Assembly (NCBI GenBank): GCA_964473825.1
Contig: CAYYQL010000006.1
Span: forward strand, 32,001 to 96,000
Length of the DNA: 64,000 nucleotides
Direction: 5' to 3'
DNA from: an uncultured archaeon
GTDB lineage: Archaea > Asgardarchaeota > Thorarchaeia > Thorarchaeales > Thorarchaeaceae
Shown: positions 1,244-57,161 of the stretch, in pieces
How the letters are laid out: the number at the start of each line of letters is the position of its first letter
How positions within the stretch are numbered: the stretch's first letter is position 1
Notes under the pieces: generated by a model
The model's database searches: none
Told to the model about the DNA's origin: nothing
Seen by the model: only the letters and a program-made list of their open reading frames with translations
Program-made: the position numbers and the translations under genes

Positions 1244-2212
1244 ATGAAGACAAGAGATAGGAAACAGAAAGCGAGGGAGTTGGCTCAGAGATTCGGATAT
1301 CTTCCCTACATGACCGAGAGATACCTGGCTCTATGGGGAGAGAACGAAACAATCGAATTCCTACAGGCATGTGAGAAGCCCCCTAGAACATCAATTCGAG
1401 TCAACACTCTGAAGACTGGAAAGAAGGAGCTCATGGAAGCACTCGACAAAAAGGATGTGGCTCTGGAGGAGATTTCATGGCTCGAAGAGGGCCTATATGC
1501 CGACTTCCAAGGATTCTCCCCAGGTTCACTCACAGAGTACATGCTAGGACACTACTATGTCCAAGGAGTCCCTTCGATGGCTGTGGTGAAGGCGCTTGAC
1601 CCTAGACCAGACGAAACTGTCTTCGACCTGGCAGCTGCACCGGGAGGGAAGACAACTCATATTGCTCAGCTGATGGATAACTCAGGGAAGGTCGTTGCCA
1701 TCGAACAGGACCGTGAGAGAATCAGGAGCCTTGAAAGCAACATTCTCCGTTGCGGAGTGAAGAATTCGATTGTTCTAAGAGGAGATGCCCGCAAACTAGA
1801 TGAGCTTGAAATAGAACCGGACAGGATTCTGTTGGATGCTCCCTGTTCCGGGGAGGGGCTCCTAGCAGTTGACCCCGAACGTAAGACCAGCAAGAGCATG
1901 GCGGATATCAGATTCTGCGCTACTATCGAGGATCAACTCCTTGACGCAGCAGTCCAATCTCTCCGTTCAGGAGGGGTTATTCTCTACTCAACATGTTCGA
2001 TTGCTCCTGAGGAGGGCGAGTATATTGTGGATGGAATGCTGCGTAAGCATCCAAATCTCAAACTCATTGACATTGAACCGAAGATGGGTGTGCCTGCGTT
2101 CACATCTCCATATGGTGTACAGATGGACGAGTCATTAGAGAAGGCAAGACGGTTGCTACCGCACCTACACGGAACTGAGGGGTTTTTCATTTGCAAGATG
2201 ATGAAGGATTGA
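1244..2212 (+). CDS. RsmB/NOP2-family RNA m5C methyltransferase
   Basis: DLAAAPGGKT, ILLDAPCSG and YSTCS motifs. Confidence 0.92.
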   Translation: MKTRDRKQKARELAQRFGYLPYMTERYLALWGENETIEFLQACEKPPRTSIRVNTLKTGKKELMEALDKKDVALEEISWLEEGLYADFQGFSPGSLTEYMLGHYYVQGVPSMAVVKALDPRPDETVFDLAAAPGGKTTHIAQLMDNSGKVVAIEQDRERIRSLESNILRCGVKNSIVLRGDARKLDELEIEPDRILLDAPCSGEGLLAVDPERKTSKSMADIRFCATIEDQLLDAAVQSLRSGGVILYSTCSIAPEEGEYIVDGMLRKHPNLKLIDIEPKMGVPAFTSPYGVQMDESLEKARRLLPHLHGTEGFFICKMMKD

Positions 2213-3849: not shown

Positions 3850-6069
3850 TTGAGTACGCTAAGAGAATTGGAACTTGAACGGATATCTCCACATCTGCTA
3901 GAGATACTAAGAAGACAGGGATACGCATCACTCAGTGAGTTCCAGAAGAGTGCATTAAGGGAGGGATTGATGCGTGACGAAAACATCATCATGCAGACGC
4001 ATGACTTCGATGAGGCGTACAGGATAGGCGAGATTGCGCTACTAAACCAGGTGGCATCAAACTTCCGAGCAAGAGGCATCATCCTCTGTCAGAACCCTCA
4101 TCAGGCGGAGAAACGGCTCTCCTCACTGAGCAAGAAGTGCAGCAGGCTTGGAATTAGGGTGACTCCGATAATAAGGAGAAGAGAAGCCACCGGCATCCTA
4201 CCAACACGCGAAAGAGTCATTGTGGCCACAATTCGCTCACTAGGTATTGCCATTCAGTCGCAACCTGGCCTGCTAGATGATGTTAAGTCGATACTAGTGG
4301 AGAGGATAGATAGGATAGGACAACCGAATTATGGTGCAACTCTCGAGGGGATTCTGGTCAACCTCATGGGTGTTTCTGAGAGGGTTCAGTATATTGCCAC
4401 ATGTCCTCCTGTGGCAGACATAGACGATCTAAGTAGATGGTTGAAGGCGGAGGTCGTTGAAGATCCAGAGCCAGAGATTAAGCGAATCTTCAGTGTGAAG
4501 GCCTTCCCTAGTATGGCCGAGTCACTCGCGGATCTTGCAGAATTTGTCCACTACAAAGAGGGACAGATCATGATACTCTGCTCAGACATCGATTCCGCGG
4601 AAGAGCTTGCGTATCAACTCACTGGCATTGATGATGTTCACGAAGACGCAGTACTAGACCTGCGACTCCTGCCTGAGAACCGCGACGAGTTAATTCGGCT
4701 TGCACAACAGATTGGAAGGCATTTCTTCGATTGCGAGTTGACTGACAGACTTCAGGATGTTGTTTCTAGGGGGGTTGCATTCTTTCATGAGGGAGTGCCC
4801 AGAATCCAAAGACGGATGATATCAGAGGCGTGGGAGGAACAGGTTCTCCCCGTCCTTGTAATGCCAACTCGTTTTGCGATTGCGAGCGGCCTCCGCGCCA
4901 CGGTTGTCTTCCTCCTTGGCGCATACATGAGGGACGTGTATTCGGACTTATCTGGTCAAGAGGATCTCACAGTCTTATCAGAACTTCAGCTGTCCGATGT
5001 TCTCGAAAGGGCCGGCAGACCAACATTGGATAAAGAGGGGTTTGGAATAGTAGTAGTGGGCAGCGACGCGGAAAGGAGGCGCGTACTTGAGAGGTATTTC
5101 ATCAAAGATGAGGACCGAAATATATCGCCAAGGCTCGGAGAGGTTGACAGCTCCATGGACGACCCGGAGAACTTTCAGGATCTCCTCCTGAATCAGCTTT
5201 GTGCGGATTCAGACAGCTCCGATAATCCCTTCTCAATTCTTGACCGAACATACTGGGCCGCCTCGAAACGCAAAGTCGGTATCACAGCCGACTTGATGTC
5301 TCCAGTTGAGAACGCCAATGCTGAAACACTGATAGACCTCAGGACCAACAAGTCCACCCGCACCCGAGCGGCAGACATTCCAGATTCAAGTGTCAGAATA
5401 GTATCAGTGACTCCATCCAAGATCGAAGGCCTGGTCCATAGTGGCTCACGGGAGCTCTGGCACTTTGTGGCCCTAAGAGCTGCCGAGGGCGTATCTTGTT
5501 CGTGCGAAGCATGGAAGTATCAGGGTATAAGCAGGCATCGCCTTTGCAAACACCTTGTGAAGTTCTCGAAGTTTGCTTTGGAAGACAATGATACGCGGCC
5601 TTATGCAGCTTCAGTCATCGAACAGGCACTTCGAGGGCTCAGCCTAATCGACGAATTGGAACAGGAAGGTCTGGTTGTGAGAGAAGATAACAGAATCAAG
5701 TGTACGGTGCTCGGAGGTAGCGTCGCAAGACTAGGAGTTCCGGTCGGCGATGCGAGACAGGCCCTGAAGGCGCTCTCCGATAAGAAGGGGGATCTCTACT
5801 CCATCCTACAGAGACTCTTGGTGAGTCGAACAGGTCTATCGGAAGACCTCATCCATGAAGTGCTCTCGTCCCTTCCCGCAGATTCCATTGAGCAGATAGG
5901 AAAGTGTGCAGAGCATATGCCCGGTGTTGTTGAGAACCTGCTCGAAGAGTCTCAGTATGTGAATTCCATTCTCCTTAGCCTCATGGCTAAAGATAAACGG
6001 AATGAACTCGGTCGAAGAAGCCTAGAGTTGCAAGACTCACTTATGACTCTCCTAGAAGACCATTCTTAG
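3850..6069 (+). CDS. Degenerate Hel308/Ski2-like SF2 helicase with inserted SWIM zinc finger
   Basis: LSEFQ Q-motif, RGVAFFHEG and GRP..DKEG retained; Walker A and DExH replaced; CSC-x13-CKH SWIM. Confidence 0.8.
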   Translation: MSTLRELELERISPHLLEILRRQGYASLSEFQKSALREGLMRDENIIMQTHDFDEAYRIGEIALLNQVASNFRARGIILCQNPHQAEKRLSSLSKKCSRLGIRVTPIIRRREATGILPTRERVIVATIRSLGIAIQSQPGLLDDVKSILVERIDRIGQPNYGATLEGILVNLMGVSERVQYIATCPPVADIDDLSRWLKAEVVEDPEPEIKRIFSVKAFPSMAESLADLAEFVHYKEGQIMILCSDIDSAEELAYQLTGIDDVHEDAVLDLRLLPENRDELIRLAQQIGRHFFDCELTDRLQDVVSRGVAFFHEGVPRIQRRMISEAWEEQVLPVLVMPTRFAIASGLRATVVFLLGAYMRDVYSDLSGQEDLTVLSELQLSDVLERAGRPTLDKEGFGIVVVGSDAERRRVLERYFIKDEDRNISPRLGEVDSSMDDPENFQDLLLNQLCADSDSSDNPFSILDRTYWAASKRKVGITADLMSPVENANAETLIDLRTNKSTRTRAADIPDSSVRIVSVTPSKIEGLVHSGSRELWHFVALRAAEGVSCSCEAWKYQGISRHRLCKHLVKFSKFALEDNDTRPYAASVIEQALRGLSLIDELEQEGLVVREDNRIKCTVLGGSVARLGVPVGDARQALKALSDKKGDLYSILQRLLVSRTGLSEDLIHEVLSSLPADSIEQIGKCAEHMPGVVENLLEESQYVNSILLSLMAKDKRNELGRRSLELQDSLMTLLEDHS

Positions 6070-26406: not shown

Positions 26407-26595
26407 ATGGGAAAGGGAACTCCGTCAAAAGGCAAGAAGAACAATCCTCACCATATCAGATGCAGGCGATGTGGTAGAAGATCATATCATGTGAGAAATA
26501 AGCGATGTGCTGCCTGTGGATTCGGAGTCTCCAGCAAGATTCGGAGCTACAGCTGGGCTCATAAGAAGGTCAACGGGACACGAATTCGCGGTTAG
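26407..26595 (+). CDS. rpl37e: 50S ribosomal protein L37e
   Basis: [23 protein letters not shown] and CAACGF motifs. Confidence 0.96.
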
Positions 26596-26646
26596 ATTTC
26601 ATCCCTCATTGTCATTACTTCATTTTATATTATCCAAGCGAATACA

Positions 26647-27021
26647 ATGAGTATGAGCTCTCAGAAACTGGTCTTTGTATACAATGCTGACAGTGGCATC
26701 ACGAACGTGATGAAGGACTTCTTTCACAGATTTGTATCACCTGCAACGTATCCATGTAATCTGTGCGCAGTCACCTATGGCAACTTCGGAATGAAGGGCT
26801 CGTGGAAATCGTTTGTGGAGAGTCTTGAGGTGCCAGTGGCGTTCCTGCACAAGGATGAGTTTAGCGAAGAATACGCGATTCAGAGCGCAGAACTTCCGTC
26901 AGCATTCATCGAAGAAGAGGGGAAGCTGGAATACTTCATCACAGCGGAGGAGATGAACGCCGTCGTGTCAGTGGATGAGCTCAAGACTCTAGTCAGACGA
27001 AAGCTGGATGAGCAATTCTAA
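26647..27021 (+). CDS. Conserved hypothetical protein with CxxC
   Basis: FVYNADSG...SPATYPCNLCAVTYG; codon-like composition. Confidence 0.65.
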   Translation: MSMSSQKLVFVYNADSGITNVMKDFFHRFVSPATYPCNLCAVTYGNFGMKGSWKSFVESLEVPVAFLHKDEFSEEYAIQSAELPSAFIEEEGKLEYFITAEEMNAVVSVDELKTLVRRKLDEQF

Positions 27022-34826: not shown

Positions 34827-34934
34827 GGGCCGATAGTCTAGCCCGGCTATGATACCGCATTGACATAAGTCATTGATTTCCAATTTCTTTCAAAGGTGCG
34901 GTGGTCGCTGGTTCAAATCCGGCTCGGCCCACCA
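34827..34934 (+). tRNA. tRNA-Val(GAC) with a 30-nt canonical 37/38 intron (34866-34895)
   Basis: GGGCCGA/TCGGCCC, CCGCA-TTGACA^...^G-TGCGG; strict BHB (TTGA/TCAA helix). Confidence 0.92.
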
Positions 34935-45372: not shown

Positions 45373-45780
45373 ATGAAGAGAGTGTTGTTCCTCTGCACCG
45401 GTAATTCGGCACGCAGTCAGATGGCTGAGGCGCTTCTGCGCGAGCTGGGAAAGGAAGAGTACGAGGCATTCAGTGCCGGAACAGACATTCAGACAGAGGT
45501 CAATCCGTTCGCCATCCAGGTACTCAAAGAGATAGGCCTTAACACCGAGGGACTCCATCCAAAGAAACTGGATCGCTTCAAGGGTGAAACATTCGACTTC
45601 GTCATTACTGTGTGCGATAATGCAAGACAGCAATGCCCCTTCTTTCCAGGAGCAAGAGAGATGCTCCACTGGTCACTTGAGGACCCCGCAGCATTCGAGG
45701 GGAGCCATGAAGAGATTCTCTTGATCTTTAGGGAGACCAGAGATGAGATTGAGAAGAGAATCAAGGGCACATTGCTCTAG
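45373..45780 (+). CDS. arsC: Arsenate reductase (LMW-PTP fold)
   Basis: FLCTGNSARSQMAE, ITVCD....CP and HWSLEDP motifs. Confidence 0.92.
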   Translation: MKRVLFLCTGNSARSQMAEALLRELGKEEYEAFSAGTDIQTEVNPFAIQVLKEIGLNTEGLHPKKLDRFKGETFDFVITVCDNARQQCPFFPGAREMLHWSLEDPAAFEGSHEEILLIFRETRDEIEKRIKGTLL

Positions 45781-47810
45781 TCTTCGACCCAATCAAACTT
45801 CCGCTGCAGGAGTTTGGTGTATATGTTTCTCCAGTCATAGTCGACCTTCTGACACCAGTTGTAGACAATCTTCGGATGGATGTATGATTTGAGAGAAGTG
45901 CCAAGATTCCACGTTCGAGAATCTCGAGCCAGTGCCCAGTCAACCTCTATCTTCTTCTTGGCCAGTTCAGCCTTCTTGACACGTTCCTTCGCCCGTTCAA
46001 CCATTTCCTTCCGTCGCTCGATTCGTTCGTTGCCATCTTCACGTGTGTCGATCAGAGACTGTTTCTTCTTCTCCAGTATCTCCTGACTTCTGCGATAGGT
46101 CTCTGTGTAGTCCTGCACACGCTTCTTTGCCTTTTCCCAACGCTCTCGCGTCCGGTCAATCTTGGCCTGTGCCTCTTCTAGGCGTTCTTGTTTGGTTCTC
46201 TTGCTCTTTCTTCGGCTCTCACGGATTGCGCGCTTCTCGGCACGGGCATTATCCCATGTCTCTTTTGCCTTGTCACGCTTCTCGCGATATTCCGCCATCT
46301 TCTCTTTGCGTTTCTCAACGACATCCTTTTGCTTCTCGATCAGCTCTCTCTTCTTCTTGAGTCGGTCCCGTTCTGTCTTACGCCGTTTCTTGAGGCGCTT
46401 CTTTTTGTCCGCAAGTGCTCTCTCTGCCTTGGCAATACGTTTGTCGGCCTTCTTCAGTCGTTCTTCAAAGCGTTTGTCGCGCCTTGGCCAACTCTTCGGC
46501 GCCTGTTTTGTATGATTCATAATGCGGGCTACTTCCAGATTGGCTCGTTTGGCTGCCGCCTTCTTGATGAAATCCGGGTCCTTCTTTGATACTTTGCTCT
46601 CCTTGAGCTCCTCTCTCATAGTGACAGACGCATGGTACGTCCGGAACATCTTCGCGGTGAGATCTGGATACACCTCACTGAGGAACTGGTTCACATCGTG
46701 ACTCCGGACCTTGGGAAAGATCTGGGCCATCTTCTTTGGGTCGGCCTTCGTCTTCTGGCGCTTTCGGGATTTGAATGAGGCCACCCAATCCTTGGCGTTA
46801 TCGTACAGCTCACGAAAGACATTGTAGACATCATCAGGCGTTTTCAGTTCCTTATGCCAAGGAACACTGTCTTTCCCCAAGAAGTCGAATATTATCAACC
46901 CGTTCTTGAAGGTGAGATGTTCCACACGTAAGGTTGTCGCGCCCACTGTGTCTGCCTCGTCCTTGTCCTTCTCATCTCCGACTCGCAGATTCAGACGATC
47001 AATCAGATAGCATGCAGCTGCGATCTCACGGACCTTTGCATCATCTGAGTGAAGGCCCCTCATGATGTGCTCACGAACGTCTTCAATATGCTTCTCTAGC
47101 CTCAGAGCACTATCGAACTTCTCGGCCTCGCGTTCCTGTTTGATGGGCGTAGCATCATGGAGCCAGATATACTTGTTCTTGCCGGTCAGCTCACTCTTCC
47201 ATTTTGCGATCCAGAGACATTCAGGCTTCCAGACAATCTTCTTCCAGTTCCCCTCCGGACGAGGAGCATCGGGAGAGAGATTGAGTGTGATGTCCTCACA
47301 TGTCGCAGCCTGCTTCCATCGGCCCCGAAGAGGATGCTCGCCTCTTCCCATGAATATCCCTGATGGCTCCGTCATGTAACTGGCTAGTTCCATCGTTTCT
47401 CCGTCAACCTCAGCATATCCGTACTCCTTCTTGAGGCGTTCCCGTTCAGCCTTTCGCTCCTCTCGCGCCCTCTTCTTCTCCTCTTTGGTCATGGCCTCCT
47501 TTGCTGCTCGCTCTTCTTCCACAAACTGTATCACTTGGGAGAAATCAACCTCGTCAAGAGAGAGCGGAGAGTTGAATCCGAGGACTTCACTTAAGTCAGT
47601 CATGAAGTTCTCAATGAACACGGGGTCTTCAACATAGGGCGTGCCCAGCTTCTTTACCCATGCCACAGCCAACTCTTGCTGCCCCCTGGTCAGAACTATC
47701 TTTTCTCCTCGCACTTCAATTTCAAGACCTTCTGGCTCTGGTGCCTCTAAGATTAGTACTCCGTTGTGTTTCAGGCTGTCCATTAGTACATGAAACCTCA
47801 TTCGATTCAT
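45777..47810 (-). CDS. Eukaryote-type DNA topoisomerase IB
   Basis: LKHNG, FMGRGEHPLRG, LRVGDEKD..ADTVG, FLGKDS, AKMFRTY, NH and GTSLKSY; start probably 47810 or 47783 rather than 48014. Confidence 0.93.
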   Translation of the reverse strand: MNRMRFHVLMDSLKHNGVLILEAPEPEGLEIEVRGEKIVLTRGQQELAVAWVKKLGTPYVEDPVFIENFMTDLSEVLGFNSPLSLDEVDFSQVIQFVEEERAAKEAMTKEEKKRAREERKAERERLKKEYGYAEVDGETMELASYMTEPSGIFMGRGEHPLRGRWKQAATCEDITLNLSPDAPRPEGNWKKIVWKPECLWIAKWKSELTGKNKYIWLHDATPIKQEREAEKFDSALRLEKHIEDVREHIMRGLHSDDAKVREIAAACYLIDRLNLRVGDEKDKDEADTVGATTLRVEHLTFKNGLIIFDFLGKDSVPWHKELKTPDDVYNVFRELYDNAKDWVASFKSRKRQKTKADPKKMAQIFPKVRSHDVNQFLSEVYPDLTAKMFRTYHASVTMREELKESKVSKKDPDFIKKAAAKRANLEVARIMNHTKQAPKSWPRRDKRFEERLKKADKRIAKAERALADKKKRLKKRRKTERDRLKKKRELIEKQKDVVEKRKEKMAEYREKRDKAKETWDNARAEKRAIRESRRKSKRTKQERLEEAQAKIDRTRERWEKAKKRVQDYTETYRRSQEILEKKKQSLIDTREDGNERIERRKEMVERAKERVKKAELAKKKIEVDWALARDSRTWNLGTSLKSYIHPKIVYNWCQKVDYDWRNIYTKLLQRKFDWVED

Positions 47811-48315
47811 TTCCAAGCTCAAGAATAGACGGGTGTAGTTCGCTTGTTCTTCTCGGCGAGAAGAGTGTGCCAAAAAAAAGATTGTGTTTAATTCATTGCA
47901 GAACTCGGATTCTTTGGCTAGAAGAAAAGCACAAAAAGGAGAGGAAGCCGAGTCTCGTGCAAGACTCGGCGGGGTTTTATTGGGCCTTTTGAGAAAAGGC
48001 GCTATTAGAACCAAGGCTCTATTAGATTCACCAAGGCTCTATCAGGACGGGGATTTCATCATCTGGACCTGTCAAGTCATTTCACCTGAATATCATTCAG
48101 GGATGAGGGGTAGTGTACTGCACGTTCTGCTATCGAACGATTCGGAGAGAAAGGATAGGTTTATTCCAGAGAGAGCGGGGAGAGGGAGGCAAAGAGAGGG
48201 AGGAGATTATATCCGAACGCCCGGTACAGATTTGCCAAAAACAGCTAAGCAGACATAAGGAAAACCATACGAGAGGAGAACTTCCGTGACATTGGAAGGA
48301 AATCAACCGAACTTC

Positions 48316-51300
48316 TCAGTGAAAGAAACCATCCAGAACCTCGAAGAACTCTTCCATGTTCACTATGTGAAATCTAGTCCAGTTTCCCTCCTCCAATAGC
48401 TGCAGAATGCTATCTACTACCTCATCACCACTGACACCTCGTGGAAGCTCCCATGAAAGAGAGTCAAGAATCTCATCTGCCTCTCCAGCTCGTCTCACCT
48501 CCAAAGTGAGCGTCCTCCTCTGCAAGTCAGCCTCCAGTCGGGCGGGCATTTCTCCATCCCTCAGGCCCCGCTTCTCAAGTGCGCTTCTGATTCGAGTGCG
48601 CTGAGCTTCTGGATCATAGATCGATTCTTCCGGAATCTCTGACGTGATATTCCTCCAGAGATCATCTAAGACATCTGAGAGCTCTCGGACTACTTCCAAT
48701 TCATAGGTGAATGAGCGGTTCTTCCAGTATTCACCCGTCAGACTAGATAGAGCTGTCCACTTGAGCCAGTCATCTCTGATGGTCAAAGATATCTCCCACC
48801 TCTGCTGCTCAGCTCGAAGATAGGTCCCAGTTTTCAGAGATGAAACCTTGAGTCCACTCTTCCGCAGAATCTTTCTAATGAGTGGGCTCTCGCGGAAGAC
48901 CAAGCTCTCTCGCTGAAGGTCTGATGGAAGAATCACATTGACCGGGTGTATCTTGGAATCAAAGACTATGCTCTCGGATCCGAGTCGGAGGATGATCTCT
49001 CTATCAGTGAAAAGGCCGCAGAAGACGTCCAACATTTCCTCATTCTCTCCCTCAAGAGTTGACTGCCAGCATCTGCCATGTTCCTTCCCCTCTCCCGAAG
49101 CCAGTGGACACTCGTTCTCGTTGTGGGATAGTCGAAAGCTGAGCTCCTTACCACAGGGGAGGGCGTGTAGGTCCGCTACTCTGGCCGGTAATCGGATATC
49201 GGCTGTTTCGGGAATGAAGGTTTCACTGACATTCGCCATGAGTGAGAGATCTCCATATTCGATGCCACTAAACCGATCCCAGAAGACCATTTGCCCAGAC
49301 GATAGTCTCACAGGTAGGCCCTTGCGAGTAAGGGTCAATGTATCGATGAGATTTGGCGTGAAGTGATGCTCTATCATCTGCAGGGACTCATCATCTTCGT
49401 TCTTGATGTCCACTCTGCATCCCTCATCTGTCCATGACAGCTCCACTGACACATGTGTCTGCCCTTGAATCCGACTGAGGACACGTTCAATAGCCTTTTC
49501 GAGTCGATGAGATAGACTGGCTGGAACCAGGATATCAGTAGATCTTCGTGAGATTGGTTCTGAGATAGGATCTTGTCTAGTGGCCCGGAGCATCGCGATT
49601 GAGCCCGTTGGTCTACCAGGGATGAAGTCGAACGAGCTCCTTAGAATCCAGTCTGACTCCTCTGTTTCTCTTGTCCAGAACAACCAATTCTCACTGTTTT
49701 GCTGGAGAGCCAGAGAGATGCGAGACCCTGTATCTATGAGTTCGCGGACACTGTCAGTGTGCTCTGAGATATCACTCTCAGCCCATTGCATCCCATCAGG
49801 ACGGGTAGCCAGCCTTTTGTTGAAGAAGCCCACAAGGACTCTAGCAGGATTCCTCGGGTCTTCCAGTGCAACAATGCTGATTGGTTGATCAGGGTCCTCT
49901 GAGTAGACTATCTGACCAAAGCTGGCAATCCTGGGTTTGGGAGATTCAACAGTCTTAGGATAGGAGTCCCTCGCCTTGGACTTGTTCTGCTTGGGGCCAC
50001 GATAGAGTCGGTGAGCATTAATCTGGCCGAGGAAGATATCGGCAAATGCCTTCTGCCTTTTTGTGCGAGGAGGACGATACATGAGCCTATGCAGTAGAGT
50101 GGGTACATCTGTCGGCTCACGGGAAAGAGAACGTCTTGTTATTGTCAGACCTTCCATAGACTCATGAAACTCATTGAAGAAGTCACGGAGAGCATCTGAG
50201 AAACTCACACCGGGTGAAACCTCTGTGTTGGGCCACAGGTCAGCCAACCAAGGAAGCAGGCTCATGGCCAGCGACCTGATCCGGTCTCGAACCCACGCCT
50301 TCGGTACAGCCTGTTCCTGTGGTTCAGGTATCTCTGTCTTGGCCCGATCATATTCTTCGGTTCTGAACTTGGCAGTCCAGTGTCTGAGAACCGGGATGTG
50401 CAAAAGTGAGCTCTCAAACCCGAAGGACGACTGGGCCACCACGACTCTTATGTCATCAAACATGGGACTTCGAGGAGCAGACTGACGGTGCCACGAGTCC
50501 GGGTCGATGACTCGTTCAGGCGCACATGGGAGGTTCCATATGATCTCATCCAGTTCACCCACAAGGGGAGAGGTATCACGCACAGGAATCAGGCAGTTGG
50601 TCGAGTAGATTGGAGTTCTTCTCTCATACTTCACCGGCCTGGAGAACCAGAGGATGGTTGTCTGTTCGTCATCGGATAATCGGTCTACCAGCTCCGCCAG
50701 CAAGCGGTTCATGCGGTCTCGATACAGTGAGGGCGTTGAGCTTTCAATCGCGTCCCACCCTGACACAACTAGCAGACGGGGCTGTTTCACCTTGTCTTCC
50801 AACACCCGCGACAGGTCAATCATCGGGCCGCCATTGTAGAGATATGCCTGAATCTCAGCGAAGAGTGGTTTGAAATCTATGGAATGGAGGGTTTCCTGCA
50901 CTGCATCTGACAGACCATTCTCGCCCGACCGCAGACGCGCCCTCAACCGAACCTCAGCAAGGGAGGTTGTGGAAAACTCGTCAGCCAAGTCAAGCCAGAC
51001 AACACGGAGGTCAGGAGCGCCCTCTCGAAAGTCATGGATCATCTGCAGACCGTGATGATGTGCTGCAATCCAAGCAGCTGAGAGCCCTGCTGAGGTTGGA
51101 GATGCGGCGGCGATATAGAGAATGAAGCGTCGAGCACTGATGCCAGCACCGATCAGTGGGTCATAGGGCGGTTTCCATTCCGGTGGCACCGGCAACTCTC
51201 TGTAGTCTGGAGTGTGTTCTTGGTTGTGGACCACGAGGGCCATGCGCGGTCTCAGCCCATCCCTCGAAACCTCAAAGGCTATTCGTCGTCCAGACAGGTC

Positions 51301-52899
51301 TTCTGTCAGACATGACTCGAGCGCACTCAAGAGAAGCCCCCGTATCATTCGTCTGCTCTCTCTGCTCTCGTCGCTGGGGTCCATGACGAGTGTGGCACGA
51401 ATCACCCTCGGAGGGCTCTCAAGATGAGCAATCGACCCAAAGACCTCAGACAGGGCCTCCGCATAAGCATCCAGCTGGGTAACGGTGTTCGGTTCAGGGG
51501 TGCCATCAACGACCTGTACCCACTCCTTAGGGCTGAGGGGCCGGAGAGAGAGCCTGAACCGTGGGACCACCCGCTGGACCATCCCGTGCCGCTTCCGAGA
51601 TGACGAAGGCCTTCGTTCAGGCTCCATATACCACTTGAACCCACAGCGGGTCTTGACCTCCACCACCATCAGCGGACGCCAGAGGGTACGGAGACCTGTT
51701 GGTGCGGTCTCCCTTCTGAACACGACCAGGTCTGCCCTCCCCTTGCCCAGCGAGGTCCCCAGAGGTAGCTCTGCGACAATCCTGAGACCTCCTCCGGCCC
51801 CATCACGGTCATCGTCGCGGATGGCTCTCCGTACATCCAGAAACCGGTCGAATCTGTCCGTGATGCGCCTGTGGGCCTGGGCCCCCACCCTCTTCGTCCG
51901 TCGAACGGCACTCTGCCACAGGTGTTTCACATCATCACTGGTCAGGCGTGGTGCCTTCTTCTCGTGCTCGTCCGTCAGGACCTCGGACCCGCCTGACAGG
52001 ATTCGGGCAAACTCCCCGGTCAGTACCGAATCCACCCCGGCCGCCTCCGCCTGCGCCAGCTGCTCCTCGAAGAAGTCCATGCTGAAACGGGGACGGGAAT
52101 ACGCCGCATGGGAGGACACGGTCTCAGGCTCACCCACCCGAACACCGTGGTGTGCCGCGATGTCATCACGGATCTCCCGCAGCAGCCTGACCGTCCCATC
52201 CCTAAAGCCCGACGACCCATGCTCATGCTCGGTGTACAGGTGGTCGAGGTAGGTCCGTGCCCGCAGGATGAAGAGGTTGCTGTACCTCCGTGTGTCCCGC
52301 ACCGACACATCGTGGATGTAGGCATCCGTGTTCAGGACCTGGATGTGCTGGCGCAGGGCGTCCATGAAGTCCAGCTCGGTGAGGAAGCGGTGGACAGGGG
52401 GATAGGCGGGGCAGCGTGCGTCGCCGGGATACCCCTGACCGATGTGCTCCCCGTTCTCGTTGAAGAGGGGCTGCGGCTGCCCCATGGGGTAGTAGATCGC
52501 CCCAGACTCCCGCAGAGCCGCGCCCCCAACGTTGAAGCGCTGGTTCAGGGGGCCCACATCCTCGTACCACCGTCGCGCCCGCACGGTCTCGGTGCAGCCA
52601 TAGAGGGCTGCGTTCTCCTCTAGCATGTCCAGACCATTCTTCCTGATGTTGTGCTCGGCCTTCATCACGTGGCTGAAGTCCGGGGCACCCACCGCCCTCG
52701 AGATCTGGTAGGCCTCCGTGTACCGGTGCAGGATGTCACGGGAACTCTCGTACAGGTGGCGCGTGGTCGCGTTCCGAATCGTGCGCTGCAGGTACACAGC
52801 CGTGGACAGACCTGTCCTCATCGCCCGTGCCAGCACCCTGTTCGGATGCCTCGGGTACGGCCTCGCCCGCGGGCCACGGCTCCCTCTCATTCGCGCCAC
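48316..52899 (-). CDS. 1527-aa multidomain protein with a RecB/Cas4-like PD-(D/E)XK nuclease domain
   Basis: GAQAH, AELPL...GRADLV...VEVKT and QLDAY motifs; the rest is unassigned. Confidence 0.7.
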   Translation of the reverse strand: MARMRGSRGPRARPYPRHPNRVLARAMRTGLSTAVYLQRTIRNATTRHLYESSRDILHRYTEAYQISRAVGAPDFSHVMKAEHNIRKNGLDMLEENAALYGCTETVRARRWYEDVGPLNQRFNVGGAALRESGAIYYPMGQPQPLFNENGEHIGQGYPGDARCPAYPPVHRFLTELDFMDALRQHIQVLNTDAYIHDVSVRDTRRYSNLFILRARTYLDHLYTEHEHGSSGFRDGTVRLLREIRDDIAAHHGVRVGEPETVSSHAAYSRPRFSMDFFEEQLAQAEAAGVDSVLTGEFARILSGGSEVLTDEHEKKAPRLTSDDVKHLWQSAVRRTKRVGAQAHRRITDRFDRFLDVRRAIRDDDRDGAGGGLRIVAELPLGTSLGKGRADLVVFRRETAPTGLRTLWRPLMVVEVKTRCGFKWYMEPERRPSSSRKRHGMVQRVVPRFRLSLRPLSPKEWVQVVDGTPEPNTVTQLDAYAEALSEVFGSIAHLESPPRVIRATLVMDPSDESRESRRMIRGLLLSALESCLTEDLSGRRIAFEVSRDGLRPRMALVVHNQEHTPDYRELPVPPEWKPPYDPLIGAGISARRFILYIAAASPTSAGLSAAWIAAHHHGLQMIHDFREGAPDLRVVWLDLADEFSTTSLAEVRLRARLRSGENGLSDAVQETLHSIDFKPLFAEIQAYLYNGGPMIDLSRVLEDKVKQPRLLVVSGWDAIESSTPSLYRDRMNRLLAELVDRLSDDEQTTILWFSRPVKYERRTPIYSTNCLIPVRDTSPLVGELDEIIWNLPCAPERVIDPDSWHRQSAPRSPMFDDIRVVVAQSSFGFESSLLHIPVLRHWTAKFRTEEYDRAKTEIPEPQEQAVPKAWVRDRIRSLAMSLLPWLADLWPNTEVSPGVSFSDALRDFFNEFHESMEGLTITRRSLSREPTDVPTLLHRLMYRPPRTKRQKAFADIFLGQINAHRLYRGPKQNKSKARDSYPKTVESPKPRIASFGQIVYSEDPDQPISIVALEDPRNPARVLVGFFNKRLATRPDGMQWAESDISEHTDSVRELIDTGSRISLALQQNSENWLFWTRETEESDWILRSSFDFIPGRPTGSIAMLRATRQDPISEPISRRSTDILVPASLSHRLEKAIERVLSRIQGQTHVSVELSWTDEGCRVDIKNEDDESLQMIEHHFTPNLIDTLTLTRKGLPVRLSSGQMVFWDRFSGIEYGDLSLMANVSETFIPETADIRLPARVADLHALPCGKELSFRLSHNENECPLASGEGKEHGRCWQSTLEGENEEMLDVFCGLFTDREIILRLGSESIVFDSKIHPVNVILPSDLQRESLVFRESPLIRKILRKSGLKVSSLKTGTYLRAEQQRWEISLTIRDDWLKWTALSSLTGEYWKNRSFTYELEVVRELSDVLDDLWRNITSEIPEESIYDPEAQRTRIRSALEKRGLRDGEMPARLEADLQRRTLTLEVRRAGEADEILDSLSWELPRGVSGDEVVDSILQLLEEGNWTRFHIVNMEEFFEVLDGFFH

Positions 52900-53099: not shown

Positions 53100-53122
53100 G
53101 AGTGAACTCCACTTAGTGGACT
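53100..53122. repeat. Left arm of 23-bp imperfect inverted repeat bracketing tnpB-like copy 1
   Basis: GAGTGAACTCCACTTAGTGGACT is the reverse complement of 54911-54933 at 19/23 positions. Confidence 0.7.
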
Positions 53123-53143: not shown

Positions 53144-54829
53144 ATGATGGCGATGGTCAAGTCCCAGGAACCAGTAATCACGGTCAAGATTCCCATCAAC
53201 TGGGAGGAGATGACCGCGAGGGCACAGCAGCGACTGCGCCAGATGGTGGGACGTGACACCAGAGTCATCCGAGCGTTCTTCGGGATCATCGAAGAGAACG
53301 AGGAACAGCTCTTGAGGGGGAGAAACAGGGACCGGATCGATGAGAACAAGCTGCATGCTATGACCATGACTGCCCTGAAGGTGAGCAAGGGACAAGAAGA
53401 ACGTCCTGAGGTAGAGCACGACCTGAAGGAGCAGTTCCCGAGAATATCAGCAAACGAGCTGAGTGAGTGCCGCAAGGTGGCTGTTGCGAATTACGAGAGT
53501 TACCTGGCCTTGAAGAGGAAGCGATGGCGGAAGGCGTCACGACCCAGTGAGGTGAATCGGAGCCAGCGGATACCGAGAAGAATCTTCATTCCGTATCGGG
53601 CTGAGCTGGTTCATCATAAGAGCACTGTGGCAACGTGGTGGCTGGAGCTGCGTGACTCCCTGGACTCGGTCCCTGAACGACGGCGGGTACATGATAGACT
53701 GACGGTGCCGCTGAAGACCTCCCCCTTTCACCTTGAGCAGCTGGACAGGGGAGATAAGAAGTCTGTGCAGGTGTTCACGGACAGACGGGGGAAGTGGTGG
53801 GCAGCGGTTGCTGTGCGATTGCCCGGGGTCGAGGCTGAGTCAGAATTGCCACCTGCAGTGTTGGGAATCGATCTGGGAATCAACCGTGCGGTCTGTACGA
53901 CGTTGGTGACGCCCTCAAAGGTCTCGGAGACCCGGTATTTTGTCCAAGAACATAAGGTCAGACTCATGAAGAAGTATGATGACCGATTTGCCGACCTGCA
54001 GCGGGAACTTCAATTCTGTAAGGCTGACACGGAGCGGCACGATAACGTGGCTGCTAAACTCCGGAGCCTTCGCTCCAAGCGAGAACAGGTCTCCAAGGAG
54101 TACGACAGGCTAACCGTTAGCAGACTCATCTCGTATATCGAGGAGCTGTCACAGAAGTGGATGGTCTACGTGGCAATAGGCCGCGTCAAGGGCATCCGCA
54201 ACACTGCTCGAAAGGGGAACTACAAGGGAAAGAAATTCAGAGGGATGGTGCATCGCTGGAGCTTCGGGCGGGTGACGCGCACGCTAAAACACGGGCTCGA
54301 GCAGCGAGGCTGGAGAACCGAGGGAAGGAAGAGCCGGTTTCATGTTGTCCCTGAGAACTGGACCTCCATCACCTGCTGGAAGTGCGGCCATCGAGGTGTT
54401 CGTCCCAAGCAGTCTCTGTTCATCTGCCATACTTGTGGGTTCAGAACGAACGCTGACAGAAACGGTTCCCTGAATATCGCGCGTCGATTGATCACGCTCA
54501 TTCCGTCACTTACGAATGAGAACGGACTAGGGCGGTGGGCCACTCCTCAGCGGGAGCTCGGCTCAGCCCCGAAGGCTGTGAGGAAGACCCGTTCTTCTAA
54601 GCAGAAGTCCGAACTTGCTCGCAATGGCCCGGCATCAGGCCAGAGCAAGTCCGCGGTGGTTCGCCCCACTCAGATGAGTATCCTTGACTTTGGTGACGAA
54701 GTTGCGGGTGGCGATGATGATAGTGCCGTGGGAAGAGCTGTGGAAACACTCTCTGCTTCCAGCAATGATGCGGCTGAGTTAAAGCAGGAGAAGGAAGCTC
54801 GGGTTACAGGAGGGACCGTGTCCCAATGA
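53144..54829 (+). CDS. tnpB: TnpB/Cas12f-like RuvC nuclease, copy 1 (rearranged catalytic Glu)
   Basis: VLGIDLG (D243), VAIG346, VPE404NWTS, CWKC..CHTC zinc finger, NAD438RNGSLNI. Confidence 0.88.
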   Translation: MMAMVKSQEPVITVKIPINWEEMTARAQQRLRQMVGRDTRVIRAFFGIIEENEEQLLRGRNRDRIDENKLHAMTMTALKVSKGQEERPEVEHDLKEQFPRISANELSECRKVAVANYESYLALKRKRWRKASRPSEVNRSQRIPRRIFIPYRAELVHHKSTVATWWLELRDSLDSVPERRRVHDRLTVPLKTSPFHLEQLDRGDKKSVQVFTDRRGKWWAAVAVRLPGVEAESELPPAVLGIDLGINRAVCTTLVTPSKVSETRYFVQEHKVRLMKKYDDRFADLQRELQFCKADTERHDNVAAKLRSLRSKREQVSKEYDRLTVSRLISYIEELSQKWMVYVAIGRVKGIRNTARKGNYKGKKFRGMVHRWSFGRVTRTLKHGLEQRGWRTEGRKSRFHVVPENWTSITCWKCGHRGVRPKQSLFICHTCGFRTNADRNGSLNIARRLITLIPSLTNENGLGRWATPQRELGSAPKAVRKTRSSKQKSELARNGPASGQSKSAVVRPTQMSILDFGDEVAGGDDDSAVGRAVETLSASSNDAAELKQEKEARVTGGTVSQ

Positions 54830-54955
54830 CGGTGGCCGAAGCTCTTGCTTGCTCTGGGGTGGCTCCCAGAAGTAGCGGTGACGCTGGGCAAGAGAAGAGC
54901 GGAACACAGAAGTCCAACCAGCGGAGTTCACTCAACCCCAGCCATGGGAGTACAC
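54720..54955 (+). ncRNA. omegaRNA/reRNA-like structured RNA of copy 1 (boundaries approximate)
   Basis: Three-way junction 54842-54894 that covaries with 56729-56779; conserved GGAACAC..AAGTC..CACTCA end. Confidence 0.6.
54911..54933. repeat. Right arm of the inverted repeat / element right end
   Basis: AGTCCAACCAGCGGAGTTCACTC; a degenerate homolog lies at 56797-56818. Confidence 0.7.
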
Positions 54956-55049
54956 TTTGTCTTCTGAAGAGCAAAGCCATGCTTTTTCTCTTGCTGCAGT
55001 TGATCGATTCCGCAACTGGACTGTTAGTAAATAGGCTGAGGCGACGACG

Positions 55050-57161
55050 ATGGCGGCTGCTACGAACCCTAGAATCGCGGTAAAGATACCGATTGCATGG
55101 GAGAGCATGTCGTCTTCTTCTCAGCAACACTTGGAACAGATAGTGGGTAGGGACTCCCGAGCAATCAAGAGGCTCCTGGGCATCATTGAACACAATGAGG
55201 ATGATCTACTCTGTGGTAAGAGAAGGAACAAGGTGAGCCTGGGGCAACTCAACAGAATCACCATGACTGCGACGAGGGGAAAGGCCAACCGGACCAAGGT
55301 CCCGCATGACCTGAAGGTTGACTTCCCGCGGGCCTGTGCCAGCGACCTCGCTGAGTGCGTCAAGACAGCTGTCAGTCTGTACAACAGCTACCTTGCCCTC
55401 AGGCAGAAGAGGGGGTGGAGAGCGTCCCGACCCTGTAAGTCGAACTCCTCAGGACGTATCCCTCGATGGATGTTTCATCCCAAGTCCTTCCGATTGGTTC
55501 AGCATGAGAACACGACTGCGCGGTGGTGGATGTCCCTGAGGGACTCGATGGACTCGAACCTTGAGGACAGGTTGCGCCATGACAGGCTCATGATTCCCCT
55601 GAAGATGTCCCCCTTCCATGAGAACCAGCTCCAGCGCGGCGAGGTCAAGGCTGCACAGGTCTTCACTGACCGGCTGGGAAAGTGGTGGGTCACGATATCC
55701 GTTCGTCTGGCTGAGACTCCAGAGGTCAGCGACGAGAACCCACCTGCTGTGCTAGGAATAGACCTGGGGATTGAGAAGGCTGTCTGTACCACTCTTGTCA
55801 CCCCTGAGAAGGTGCGCGAAACGCGCTACTTCACACAGCAGAAGAAGGTCCGTCTTCTGAAGCAGTATGATGACAGAGTCGCAAGTCTGCAGAGCGAGAT
55901 GGACCTGAAAAAGGCTCGCGGCCAACGCTATGATGGTGTTGCAGAGAGACTGCGCTCTCTCAGAACCAAGAGAGAGTCCGTGTCCAAGGAACACGATCGC
56001 GTCCTGCTCCGGGAACTGATCGACTACATCCTGGAGCTGAGTGAGAGGTATACACTCTTTGTCGCGATTGGCAGGCTCAAGAACATCCGAAATAGTGCCA
56101 AACGCGGTGACTGGAAGGGCCGAAGGTTCAGGGGCATGGTCCATTCATGGGCCTTCGCTCGGATAACCGAGGGACTTCGACGACAGCTCGGTCAGCTGGG
56201 TTGGCCTGTTCTGGGTAAGAAGTCGCGGGTCCACGCAGTCCCTGAGGCATGGACATCCATCATCTGTTGGAAGTGCGGGCAGAGAGGAACCAGACCCAGA
56301 CAGAACCTCTTTGTCTGCTCCTGTGGAAACAAGTGCAATGCCGACAAGAACGGAGCCATCAACATCGCCGGACGCCTCATTACGCTCACAGAGTCACTCA
56401 ATTCTGTGAGAGGACTAGGGAAGTGGGCTAGTGCAGCCTCTGCACGACGCACGCAACTGAAAGCCCGGAGGAAGACATCTTCCAAGGGGAGGTCCTCACT
56501 CTCAGGGCGCGATGCCTCATCTCATCGCGGAGAGTCCGCGGCTGTTCACTACGCTCAACCGAGCCTCCTCGACTTCGGTGACGAGGCTGAGGTGAGTGAT
56601 GACGGTCCAGCCGTGGGAAGAAACGTGGAAAGACTCTCTACCGCTGGAACAGATGAACCAGCAGAAAAGGTAGGAGAAGGAAGCCAAGACAGGAAGAGAA
56701 GTGCCACTTCTATGATGCCTGACAAAGACTCCATCCCTCCCCGTCGCCAGACAGGGAATGGTGGCAACACCGGGTGGAGAAAGGGTGGAACACGTAAGTC
56801 AACTAGAGAAGCCCACTCACTCATCAAGGGAGCCGCAACACCACTTCGAATGAATAGGAGAAGAGAAGCATGGATGGTGCGGCCACCGGGAATCGAACCC
56901 GGGCCCCATGCTTGGAAGGCATGGATCCTGACCACTAGACTATGGCCGCTTCACAGAGAGCTGACAGCCCATAGTCGATTTAAGGCTATTGCAGTGGCGC
57001 CGCGAGTTGACAGTCCGGGGAGTGGAAGGTGGATCCTTGCCTTGGAGGTCCGACACTCTTTCAGACCATGCATCTGGCTGAAGGTCATACGAAGACCAGT
57101 TCATCATGTCGAGCAGAACAACAGATATCTGGAGGAGAAGCAGACAAGAGGAGCGCGCTGA
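55050..57161 (+). CDS. tnpB: TnpB/Cas12f-like RuvC nuclease, copy 2 (tail frameshifted; homologous stop at 56713-56715)
   Basis: VLGIDLG, VAIGRLK, VPEAWTS, CWKC..CSC and NADKNGAINI; colinear with copy 1. Confidence 0.88.
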   Translation: MAAATNPRIAVKIPIAWESMSSSSQQHLEQIVGRDSRAIKRLLGIIEHNEDDLLCGKRRNKVSLGQLNRITMTATRGKANRTKVPHDLKVDFPRACASDLAECVKTAVSLYNSYLALRQKRGWRASRPCKSNSSGRIPRWMFHPKSFRLVQHENTTARWWMSLRDSMDSNLEDRLRHDRLMIPLKMSPFHENQLQRGEVKAAQVFTDRLGKWWVTISVRLAETPEVSDENPPAVLGIDLGIEKAVCTTLVTPEKVRETRYFTQQKKVRLLKQYDDRVASLQSEMDLKKARGQRYDGVAERLRSLRTKRESVSKEHDRVLLRELIDYILELSERYTLFVAIGRLKNIRNSAKRGDWKGRRFRGMVHSWAFARITEGLRRQLGQLGWPVLGKKSRVHAVPEAWTSIICWKCGQRGTRPRQNLFVCSCGNKCNADKNGAINIAGRLITLTESLNSVRGLGKWASAASARRTQLKARRKTSSKGRSSLSGRDASSHRGESAAVHYAQPSLLDFGDEAEVSDDGPAVGRNVERLSTAGTDEPAEKVGEGSQDRKRSATSMMPDKDSIPPRRQTGNGGNTGWRKGGTRKSTREAHSLIKGAATPLRMNRRREAWMVRPPGIEPGPHAWKAWILTTRLWPLHRELTAHSRFKAIAVAPRVDSPGSGRWILALEVRHSFRPCIWLKVIRRPVHHVEQNNRYLEEKQTRGAR
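56605..56840 (+). ncRNA. omegaRNA/reRNA-like structured RNA of copy 2 (boundaries approximate)
   Basis: CTCCATCC/GGGTGGAG stem enclosing two hairpins, including GGTG-GCAA-CACC. Confidence 0.6.
56875..56949 (-). tRNA. tRNA-Gly(TCC), intronless
   Basis: GCGGCCA/TGGCCGC acceptor stem, CATGC-CTTCCAA-GCATG, TTCGATT and CCA. Confidence 0.95.

Follow-up and report, generated by a model that had tools for sequence, protein, structure and literature searches.

Two tandem genes of the TnpB family in an uncultured archaeon of the Thorarchaeaceae raise the question of what RNA is encoded behind them, how far it extends, and where the guide that it may carry is located. The genes lie in a 64,000-nucleotide (nt) stretch of contig CAYYQL010000006.1 (assembly GCA_964473825.1, positions 32,001 to 96,000), which is called the window below and whose numbering is used throughout. 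A preliminary description, made from the letters of the window, proposed that both tnpB copies are followed by an omegaRNA-like scaffold that begins near 54720 in the first of them, and that guides start near 54934 and 56819. As set out below, a structured and strongly covarying RNA is present behind both tnpB copies. It is likely to be the omegaRNA (also called reRNA) scaffold of a Thorarchaeota TnpB clade, ending in a terminal hairpin and with its guide located after the end of the mobile element.

A covarying RNA structure behind both tnpB copies

Eighty related loci were gathered from public Thorarchaeota assemblies, together with further copies in the same genome, and the 3′ regions of 70 sequences were aligned with MAFFT, blind to structure (alignment A3), with helices taken from RNAalifold and a structure string of our own. 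The stems, loops and flanking blocks quoted in the preliminary description were all found in place in both copies. In copy 1, an outer stem formed by CTCTTGCTT (54842-54850) and GGGCAAGAG (54886-54894) encloses TCTGGG (54853-58) paired with CCCAGA (54865-70), plus the hairpin AGCG-GTGA-CGCT (54874-85). The outer stem of copy 2, CTCCATCC (56729-36) with GGGTGGAG (56772-79), encloses TCCCCGTC (56738-45) paired with GACAGGGA (56750-57), plus GGTG-GCAA-CACC (56760-71). An upstream block, GCCGTGGGAAGA..GTGGAAA.ACTCTCT, is found at 54725 and 56610, and a downstream block, GGAACAC..AAGT..CACTCA, ends at 54934 and 56819. These conserved flanks pair with one another to form helix P1, which joins CTGTG (54738-42) to CACAG (54905-09) in copy 1 and ACGTG (56623-27) to CACGT (56791-95) in copy 2.

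Across the 70 loci, the six helices of this 3′ domain comprise 27 pairs that are 95.3% paired, compared with 37-51% for slid partners, and 24 of the 27 have changes on both sides. Compensatory cells number 189, versus 41.5 in shuffles, and none of 500 shuffles was as high. Because the variable inner hairpin could not be aligned reliably by MAFFT, the sequences were also folded one by one. The outer stem and two hairpins were formed by 67 of the 70 sequences and a GNRA tetraloop caps the second junction hairpin in 66, so the topology and loop that had been noticed in two copies of different sequence recur across the family. The minimum free energy of the junction is -23.8 kcal/mol on the + strand versus -15.2 kcal/mol on the - strand, the + strand being the more stable in 67 of 70 sequences.

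The location first proposed for the scaffold stood as regards its stems and flanking blocks, while its start near 54720 had to be moved about 200 nt upstream, to GGACTAGG. Nucleotide conservation begins there, at GGACUAGG (54524 in copy 1 and 56412 in copy 2), and the scaffold from GGACUAGG to GUUCACUCA (54524-54934; 56412-56819) spans ~410-430 nt, twice the length first described. The conserved block at 54523-54934 overlaps the coding sequence up to 54829, as it does in copy 2 and 68 related loci, and the 5′ domain is located within the last ~300 nt of tnpB. RNAalifold analysis of 70 sequences gave nine helices in this domain, with 47 pairs that are 95.8% paired versus 38-45% for slid partners, and with changes on both sides in 33. 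Summed over both domains there are 74 pairs, 95-96% paired versus ~40% when slid, 57 of them with changes on both sides. Covariation among homologs was therefore found to be strong and family-wide in the 5′ as well as the 3′ domain.

The overlap with tnpB raises the alternative that there is no functional RNA, and that the region instead consists of a coding tail (for example, one with a PCNA-binding motif) and DNA transposon-end sequences that are bound by a transposase. In agreement with this alternative, nearly all homologues keep the frame intact up to a conserved stop, the copies without tnpB (solo copies) that are described below have an open frame of 108 codons, a right end must contain transposase sites, and TGTAAGA repeats are present at both ends. 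However, the information per codon position 1, 2 and 3 is 1.21, 1.46 and 0.52 bits in the catalytic core and 1.31, 1.31 and 1.20 bits in tail residues 461-561. Third codon positions in the tail are conserved like the other two, and the constraint therefore acts on RNA. The 74 covarying pairs, with their tolerance of G:U and strong strand asymmetry, also speak against a purely coding region. For example, a second GUGA-loop hairpin, UUCGGUGACGA in the 5′ domain, is formed by the same bases that encode 'FGDE' in the tail, and a compensatory CG-to-UA variant of it turns the peptide into FSD(G/E). In addition, the tail is predicted to be disordered (predicted local distance difference test, pLDDT, <30 for residues 470-561 of the AlphaFold model), and the tail of copy 2 is frameshifted, yet its nucleotides and helices are retained. 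The lack of codon periodicity, the predicted disorder and the helices kept in the frameshifted copy indicate that the ~100-residue conserved tail of the protein is mainly an RNA footprint, and the alternative without a functional RNA is very improbable.

The protein partner fits the same proposal. TnpB models NF040570 and PF07282 match the tandem proteins, and a Foldseek search with the AlphaFold model returned Cas12f, TnpB and Fanzor2 structures at probability 1.0, with Cas12f best and with TnpB structures 8H1J and 8EXA and Fanzor2 structure 9B0L among the matches. All close relatives of the proteins are labelled Thorarchaeota. Across 33 homologues three RuvC residues never vary, namely D243, E404 (in VPExWTS) and D438 (in NADRNG), and Gly (G346) without exception takes the place of the canonical RuvC-II Glu. 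This rearranged RuvC-II type, with Gly and an alternative Glu, has already been published (Altae-Tran et al., 2023; PMC10691335). The partner thus appears to be a TnpB-family RuvC nuclease with a plausible predicted active site. A dead regulator of the TldR type was considered and dropped in view of the invariant D243, E404 and D438, and the multicopy, mobile distribution likewise argues against it. Translation of copy 1 probably has a leaderless start at the ATG at 53153, 23 nt past a TATA-like box.

The initial proposal of an omegaRNA-like scaffold behind both genes is therefore upheld by covariation, strand asymmetry, the lack of codon periodicity, promoter-bearing solo copies and a partner with the TnpB/Cas12f fold. 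No Rfam family, the TnpB/IscB-linked ones (IS605-orfB motifs, RAGATH-18 and HEARO) included, matched at gathering thresholds, nor at E <= 1 over 54400-56900, and the scaffold structure was not found in Rfam or in the literature searched.

Terminal hairpin, element ends and guide position

The GTTCACTCA motif is flanked in most of 72 loci by segments that pair with each other, 14-17 nt upstream and 12-25 nt downstream, with GUUCACUCA as the loop. The resulting bulged terminal hairpin is followed by A(C/U)AGGUCA(G/U) or GGGUUAU. The downstream arms fold better than shuffled arms in 61 of the 72 loci, and arms taken from another locus fold less well than a locus's own (p = 6e-6 and 4e-5); a contingency test of one compensatory position in the hairpin, for which only 9 loci were available, gave p = 0.33. 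Paralogues within one genome diverge directly after the end motif AGGTCAG/AGGTTAT/AGTTTAT, 20-40 nt beyond GUUCACUCA. For example, four solo copies in the same genome have an identical 20 nt after CACTCA (ATCTGTCAGA(A/G)ACAGTTTAT) and diverge after AGTTTAT. Right flanks often open with C(T/A)(G/A)GA, matching the left flank of solo copies.

These observations bear on the guides first proposed, which were the 16-20 nt that follow CACTCA (54934 and 56819 onward), the scaffold being taken to end at that motif. Similarity between the two window copies does fade there, as had been noted, and in both of them pairing between the upstream arm and the bases downstream is poor. As a boundary, however, CACTCA fails, as other paralogues and the solo copies remain similar up to the end motif 20-40 nt further on, and the window pair loses similarity at CACTCA because the hairpin arms covary. 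The earlier placement is probably wrong, since GUUCACUCA is a hairpin loop and the bases that follow it are most likely the 3′ arm. Across the set of 72, those bases form pairs with the upstream arm and the conserved end motif comes next; they are identical over 20 nt in the four solo copies, whose flanks differ; and copy 1 orthologues have CAGCCATG in common beyond the motif. When the proposed guides were searched for, no second match was found in the genome, and the solo-copy 20-mer matched only other solo copies. A guide that begins directly after CACTCA is therefore very unlikely.

In the explanation that we favour, the RNA is read on the + strand, probably starting at or a few bases before GGACUAGG within the last ~300 nt of the tnpB frame, and folds into two covarying domains of ~200 nt each, with the 74 supported pairs and a three-way junction that carries the GNRA loop. 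Its 3′ end would be the bulged hairpin with loop GUUCACUCA, followed by AGGUCAG or AGGUUAU, which would mark where the mobile element ends on the right. The sequences themselves establish this structure with its strand and extent, its conservation across the family, the RNA-level constraint on the overlapping coding tail and the point at which paralogues part, whereas TnpB binding, processing, guide position, TAM and DNA cleavage are inferred. As in characterised TnpB systems, TnpB would bind this scaffold, and the guide for cleavage of DNA next to a target-adjacent motif (TAM) would be the 16-20 nt transcribed just beyond the element end. The guide of copy 1 would then run from roughly 54953 onward, in what is now the left end of copy 2, and that of copy 2 from roughly 56862 onward, into the antisense of the 3′ end of tRNA-Gly. 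Full-length copies probably release the RNA by processing of the tnpB mRNA, and solo copies would use their own TATA-like promoter. On this reading the right end of copy 1 would be at ~54952, give or take several bases, and that of copy 2 at about 56861; both positions are uncertain because the terminal hairpin is degenerate in the window copies.

Several points weigh against this explanation. The terminal hairpin is weak in both window copies, whose right ends are placed by homology only, and its greater stability on the + than on the - strand is modest (50 versus 21 loci) and may in part reflect base composition. The complementary arms resemble the repeated TGTAAGA/TGTCAGA motifs of the left end, and because of this likeness they could be protein-binding inverted repeats in DNA and not an RNA hairpin. 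Both ends of the RNA, 5′ and 3′, and its guide are positions that we infer, and no TAM is derivable, as none can be separated from a target-site duplication. Finally, the guides of known TnpB and Cas12f RNAs start just 3′ of the closing helix, which is P1 here; a variable arm sits at this site, and an internal guide is therefore favoured by it.

Such an internal guide would occupy the variable stretch of 14-17 nt that separates the conserved AGAAGU from GUUCACUCA, a segment that begins 4 nt after P1. By extension, the matches to it at both ends, which on the other strand stand beside CTGACC(T/C), would be targets with their TAM, and TnpB would cut the ends of its own element. The complements after the motif and in the left-end module are each followed by (A/G)GGTCAG, in favour of this proposal, and the same arrangement has been described in other Asgard elements with the suggestion of a possible guide (PMC10691335). 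However, hypervariability of the segment is not seen in most loci (consensus TTTCTTGCAGTTGAGG), and its complements are imperfect, with 2-3-nt bulges and internal loops near the putative TAM-proximal end, while 13% of the predicted pairs are G:U. These features fit a hairpin and not an R-loop, and short derivatives without most of the scaffold retain both arms, as expected of an element required in cis for transposition. For these reasons we consider an internal guide unlikely, and a guide beyond the element end remains the preferred placement.

The left end of the element is related to its right end. The left-end module and the right-end segment (Table 1) are 83% complementary over 23 nt, and these arms covary, as seen when own and swapped arms were compared in 58 loci (p = 3e-5). 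The pair of TATA-like repeats that brackets the left-end hairpin also covaries between loci (for example, AAATTTATAAACAAA is present twice in locus L030). A transcript started from the upstream TATA-like box would begin at the left-end hairpin, whose sequence complements that of the scaffold's 3′ arm. Solo copies lie between 5-bp direct repeats, C(T/A)(G/A)GA, that agree between left and right in 3 long and 5-6 short copies. In full-length elements, especially copy 2, a left boundary or target duplication could not be fixed, the candidates CACTT and TTCTGAAG/TTCGAATG being inconsistent. A Y1 (HUH) TnpA (PF01797) was not found in the genome, which is 95.7% complete, in searches whose controls were positive. 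A reading of the ends as those of an IS200/IS605 element was dropped given the missing TnpA, the flanking duplications and the inverted ends.

By eye, the right flanks of L024, L034, L035, L058 and L049/L065 contain 14-40 nt that resemble pieces of tRNA genes, as do those of L060/L072/L075/L076 and L026/L033/L047. These are pieces of the T-arm or of the 5′ acceptor and D-arm, in either orientation, with no whole tRNA, and several unrelated loci have the same piece and then diverge. They could be remnants of attachment sites or inherited guides.

Table 1. Positions of the features discussed (window numbering, or contig and position in the same genome, G000).
Feature	Position	Strand	Remarks
Divergent 1527-residue partner gene (P0123)	48316..52899	-	Homologue at corresponding position of 37 related loci
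Two 16-nt TATA-like direct repeats	53030-45 and 53124-39	+	Bracket 78-nt left-end hairpin module
Left-end module, GAGTGAACTCC..GGACT	53100..53122	+	Inverted repeat of 54911-54933 (AGTCC..GGAGTTCACTC)
tnpB copy 1 (P0001, 561 residues)	53144..54829	+	
Scaffold copy 1, 5′ domain	54523..54731	+	GGACU/AGUCC, closing helix CCGCGG/CCGUGG, GUGA-loop hairpin UUUGGUGACGA
Scaffold copy 1, 3′ domain	54725..54934	+	P1, two hairpins, three-way junction 54842-54894, GTTCACTCA motif 54926-54934
Copy 1, degenerate 3′ arm and putative end motif	54935..54952	+	ATGGGAGTA, compare GGGCTAT/GGGTTAT in relatives; by homology with orthologue L012
tnpB copy 2, open frame (P0002)	55050..57161	+	55% identical to copy 1 over 540 residues
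Scaffold copy 2	56411..56819	+	GGACTAGG 56412-19, junction 56729-56779, P1 56623-27/56791-95, motif GCCCACTCA 56811-19
Copy 2, region after motif	56820..56861	+	Up to weak end-like motif AATAGGAGA; terminal hairpin poorly formed
tRNA-Gly(UCC)	56875..56949	-	3′ end faces right end of element
Solo scaffold	G000:C19:~4790-5380	+	
Solo scaffold	G000:C102:~1390-1981	+	
Solo scaffold	G000:C12:~26434-27020	-	
Solo scaffold	G000:C57:11100-11149		Contig end
Short derivative	G000:C3:118049-118134	-	
Short derivative	G000:C2:111724-111807	-	
Short derivative	G000:C2:114045-114129	+	
Short derivative	G000:C2:181119-181203	+	
Short derivative	G000:C18:22585-22679	+	
Short derivative	G000:C6:1017-1110	+	
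Short derivative	G000:C82:4609-4723	+	
Short derivative	G000:C2:34-157	-	

Solo scaffolds, short derivatives and neighbouring genes

A covariance model of the 3′ domain (R1) finds 15 copies in the genome itself. Within the family it matches 49 of 61 genomes, which represent 14 of 16 genera, and the ~456 matches in total include as many as 62 in a single genome. The tnpB core has ~154 matches in the same 61 genomes, so scaffolds without tnpB outnumber tnpB by about 3:1, a ratio that is approximate because the assemblies are fragmented. At 10 sampled high-scoring RNA loci from three other genomes, 5 of which have at least 2 kb of upstream sequence, no match to the tnpB core was found. A TATA-like box precedes GGACTAGG by 28-36 nt in all eight scaffolds examined elsewhere.

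The four solo copies of the genome itself contain the whole scaffold of ~410 nt. They have TGTCAGA repeats at the left end, the TATA-like sequence GGCTTAAATAGG placed 28 nt before GGACTAGG, and identical terminal hairpins, and they are flanked by the 5-bp repeats CTAGA or CTGGA. The copy on contig C19 lies within a CRISPR-cas locus, right after a cas4-like gene. There are also eight derivatives of ~190 nt that resemble miniature inverted-repeat transposable elements (MITEs). They retain a left end with TGTCAGA/TGTAAGA repeats, part of the outer stem of the junction, GGAACGCAGAAGT and the terminal hairpin, and they end in GATTAT; the flanks of most of them match left and right (CAGGA or CTGGA). 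The solo scaffolds might be dispersed genes for guide RNAs that act in trans and, in a related proposal, TnpB and the 1527-residue protein encoded beside copy 1 might form an RNA-directed insertion system; these are speculative ideas that we think have only a small chance of being correct.

The neighbourhood of copy 1 is conserved. In three other genomes it is syntenic between the same 1527-residue gene and tRNA-Gly(UCC), and in orthologous loci the tRNA gene lies ~28-33 nt after the copy 1 motif, with copy 2 absent between them. Copy 2 thus is, by this comparison, an extra insertion between the end of copy 1 and the tRNA. The usual stop of the family is absent from copy 2, and its frame extends by 445 nt across tRNA-Gly, on the opposite strand, as a result of a frameshift in its tail with respect to the family consensus. 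More distant relatives (L013, L015 and L028) also adjoin tRNA-Gly.

The 1527-residue protein had no match in Pfam, NCBIfam, PDB sequences or, by features, the ESM Atlas, and none of its 37 homologues has a Pfam domain. A phmmer comparison with the Cas1 of the genome found no similarity, although highly diverged Cas1 homologues could escape such a search, and no Pfam Cas1 was found near any copy, the sole match in the genome being in an ordinary CRISPR locus on contig C19. The protein contains a D..EVK stretch and has 2-3 paralogues without an adjacent tnpB (G000:C2:69901-74115, C26:28736-31288 and C17:6415-7206). A eukaryote-type topoisomerase IB with three Pfam domains (45777-48014, -) adjoins its gene, and as an ordinary chromosomal neighbour it argues that copy 1 is not within a large integrated element.

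Elsewhere in the genome, C17:5790-6410 (-) (locus L003) holds a 3′ fragment of tnpB with one internal TAG and the scaffold of a divergent subfamily, which has a longer variable arm and a right flank, GGTCGGTGCATGCA, that is common to L087, L089 and L090 in other genomes. A 105-nt Rfam tRNA match in the window (34827-34931, +), which was not called by ARAGORN, is consistent with an intron-containing archaeal tRNA.

Relation to known systems and significance

The TnpB omegaRNA or reRNA of IS200/IS605 elements such as ISDra2 and ISYmu1, reportedly described in 2021 by Karvelis and by Altae-Tran, is likewise structured and encoded on the tnpB strand, where it overlaps both the gene's 3′ end and the transposon's right end, with a scaffold conserved by covariation and a RuvC/zinc-finger nuclease partner of the same fold. 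In contrast, the scaffold analysed here is ~410-430 nt long, compared with roughly 130-250 nt, and has no Rfam match; Y1 TnpA is lacking, the ends are mutually inverted, solo copies have 5-bp direct repeats, and Gly plus an alternative Glu take the place of the RuvC-II Glu. Non-autonomous derivatives of IS200/IS605 elements (palindrome-associated transposable elements, PATEs, or MITE-like elements) that keep omegaRNA sequences are said to have been reported by Meers and colleagues in 2023. Like them, the protein-less copies keep the element ends and the guide-RNA region and are presumably served in trans; unlike them, the present solo copies retain the scaffold over its full ~410 nt, have their own TATA-like box and outnumber tnpB.

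Cas12f RNA is also a multi-helix scaffold, closed just before the guide by a long-range duplex to which helix P1 is comparable, and in structure the protein matches Cas12f best. The single guide RNA of Cas12f differs in that here neither a CRISPR array nor a tracrRNA gene is involved, and a single transcript is tied to a mobile element. Fanzors reside in transposons of eukaryotes and giant viruses that have inverted repeats and generate duplications. Fanzor omegaRNAs (Saito et al., 2023; PMC10432273) are similar in their long scaffolds that overlap the gene end, and part of their proteins have a rearranged RuvC-II Glu; they differ from the present system in that its host is archaeal and its best fold matches are to Cas12f, this comparison being one of description and fold only.

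The closest precedent is the group of Asgard 'aCas1-associated' TnpBs, in which a variable region followed by GTTCACTCA lies downstream of tnpB (Altae-Tran et al., 2023; PMC10691335). It was proposed there that the variable stretch before GTTCACTCA 'could' hold a guide, the only such statement on an Asgard clade found in the literature searched. The kind of RNA and the Asgard motif were already known (PMC10691335), and what differs from the first reading of this locus is the extent of the scaffold and the position of the guide. The present elements share with that group an Asgard host, an identical GTTCACTCA and a variable stretch after a conserved T. Unlike that group, they adjoin no Pfam-detectable Cas1, the neighbour being the unannotated 1527-residue protein, and their variable stretch is a hairpin or inverted-repeat arm and not an evident spacer.

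Cas12 is descended from the TnpB nucleases, which are themselves sought after as compact tools for genome editing, and both the exact scaffold and the guide position must be known for their use. The analysis of this locus supplies a testable secondary structure of ~410 nt and a 5′ boundary for an Asgard TnpB RNA, offers concrete alternative guide positions, and gives the variable stretch a different meaning, that of one arm of a hairpin or of an inverted repeat at the end of the element. The RNA footprint in the 100-residue tail also cautions against readings of peptide motifs there. In addition, the abundance of solo scaffolds, the inverted repeats, the 5-bp duplications and the absence of TnpA bear on the old question of how TnpB-only elements move and persist.

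If solo scaffolds do provide guides in trans, each transposition would create a new guide from the flank, and a few TnpB proteins would serve many protein-less elements, giving a guide repertoire built by transposition that would be functionally half-way to a CRISPR array. If TnpB and the 1527-residue partner instead form an insertion system, the 5-bp duplications and homing to the ends of tRNA genes would make it an archaeal analogue of Cas12k transposons. Likewise, by its complementarity to the scaffold's 3′ arm, an RNA from the left end could serve as an anti-repeat partner.

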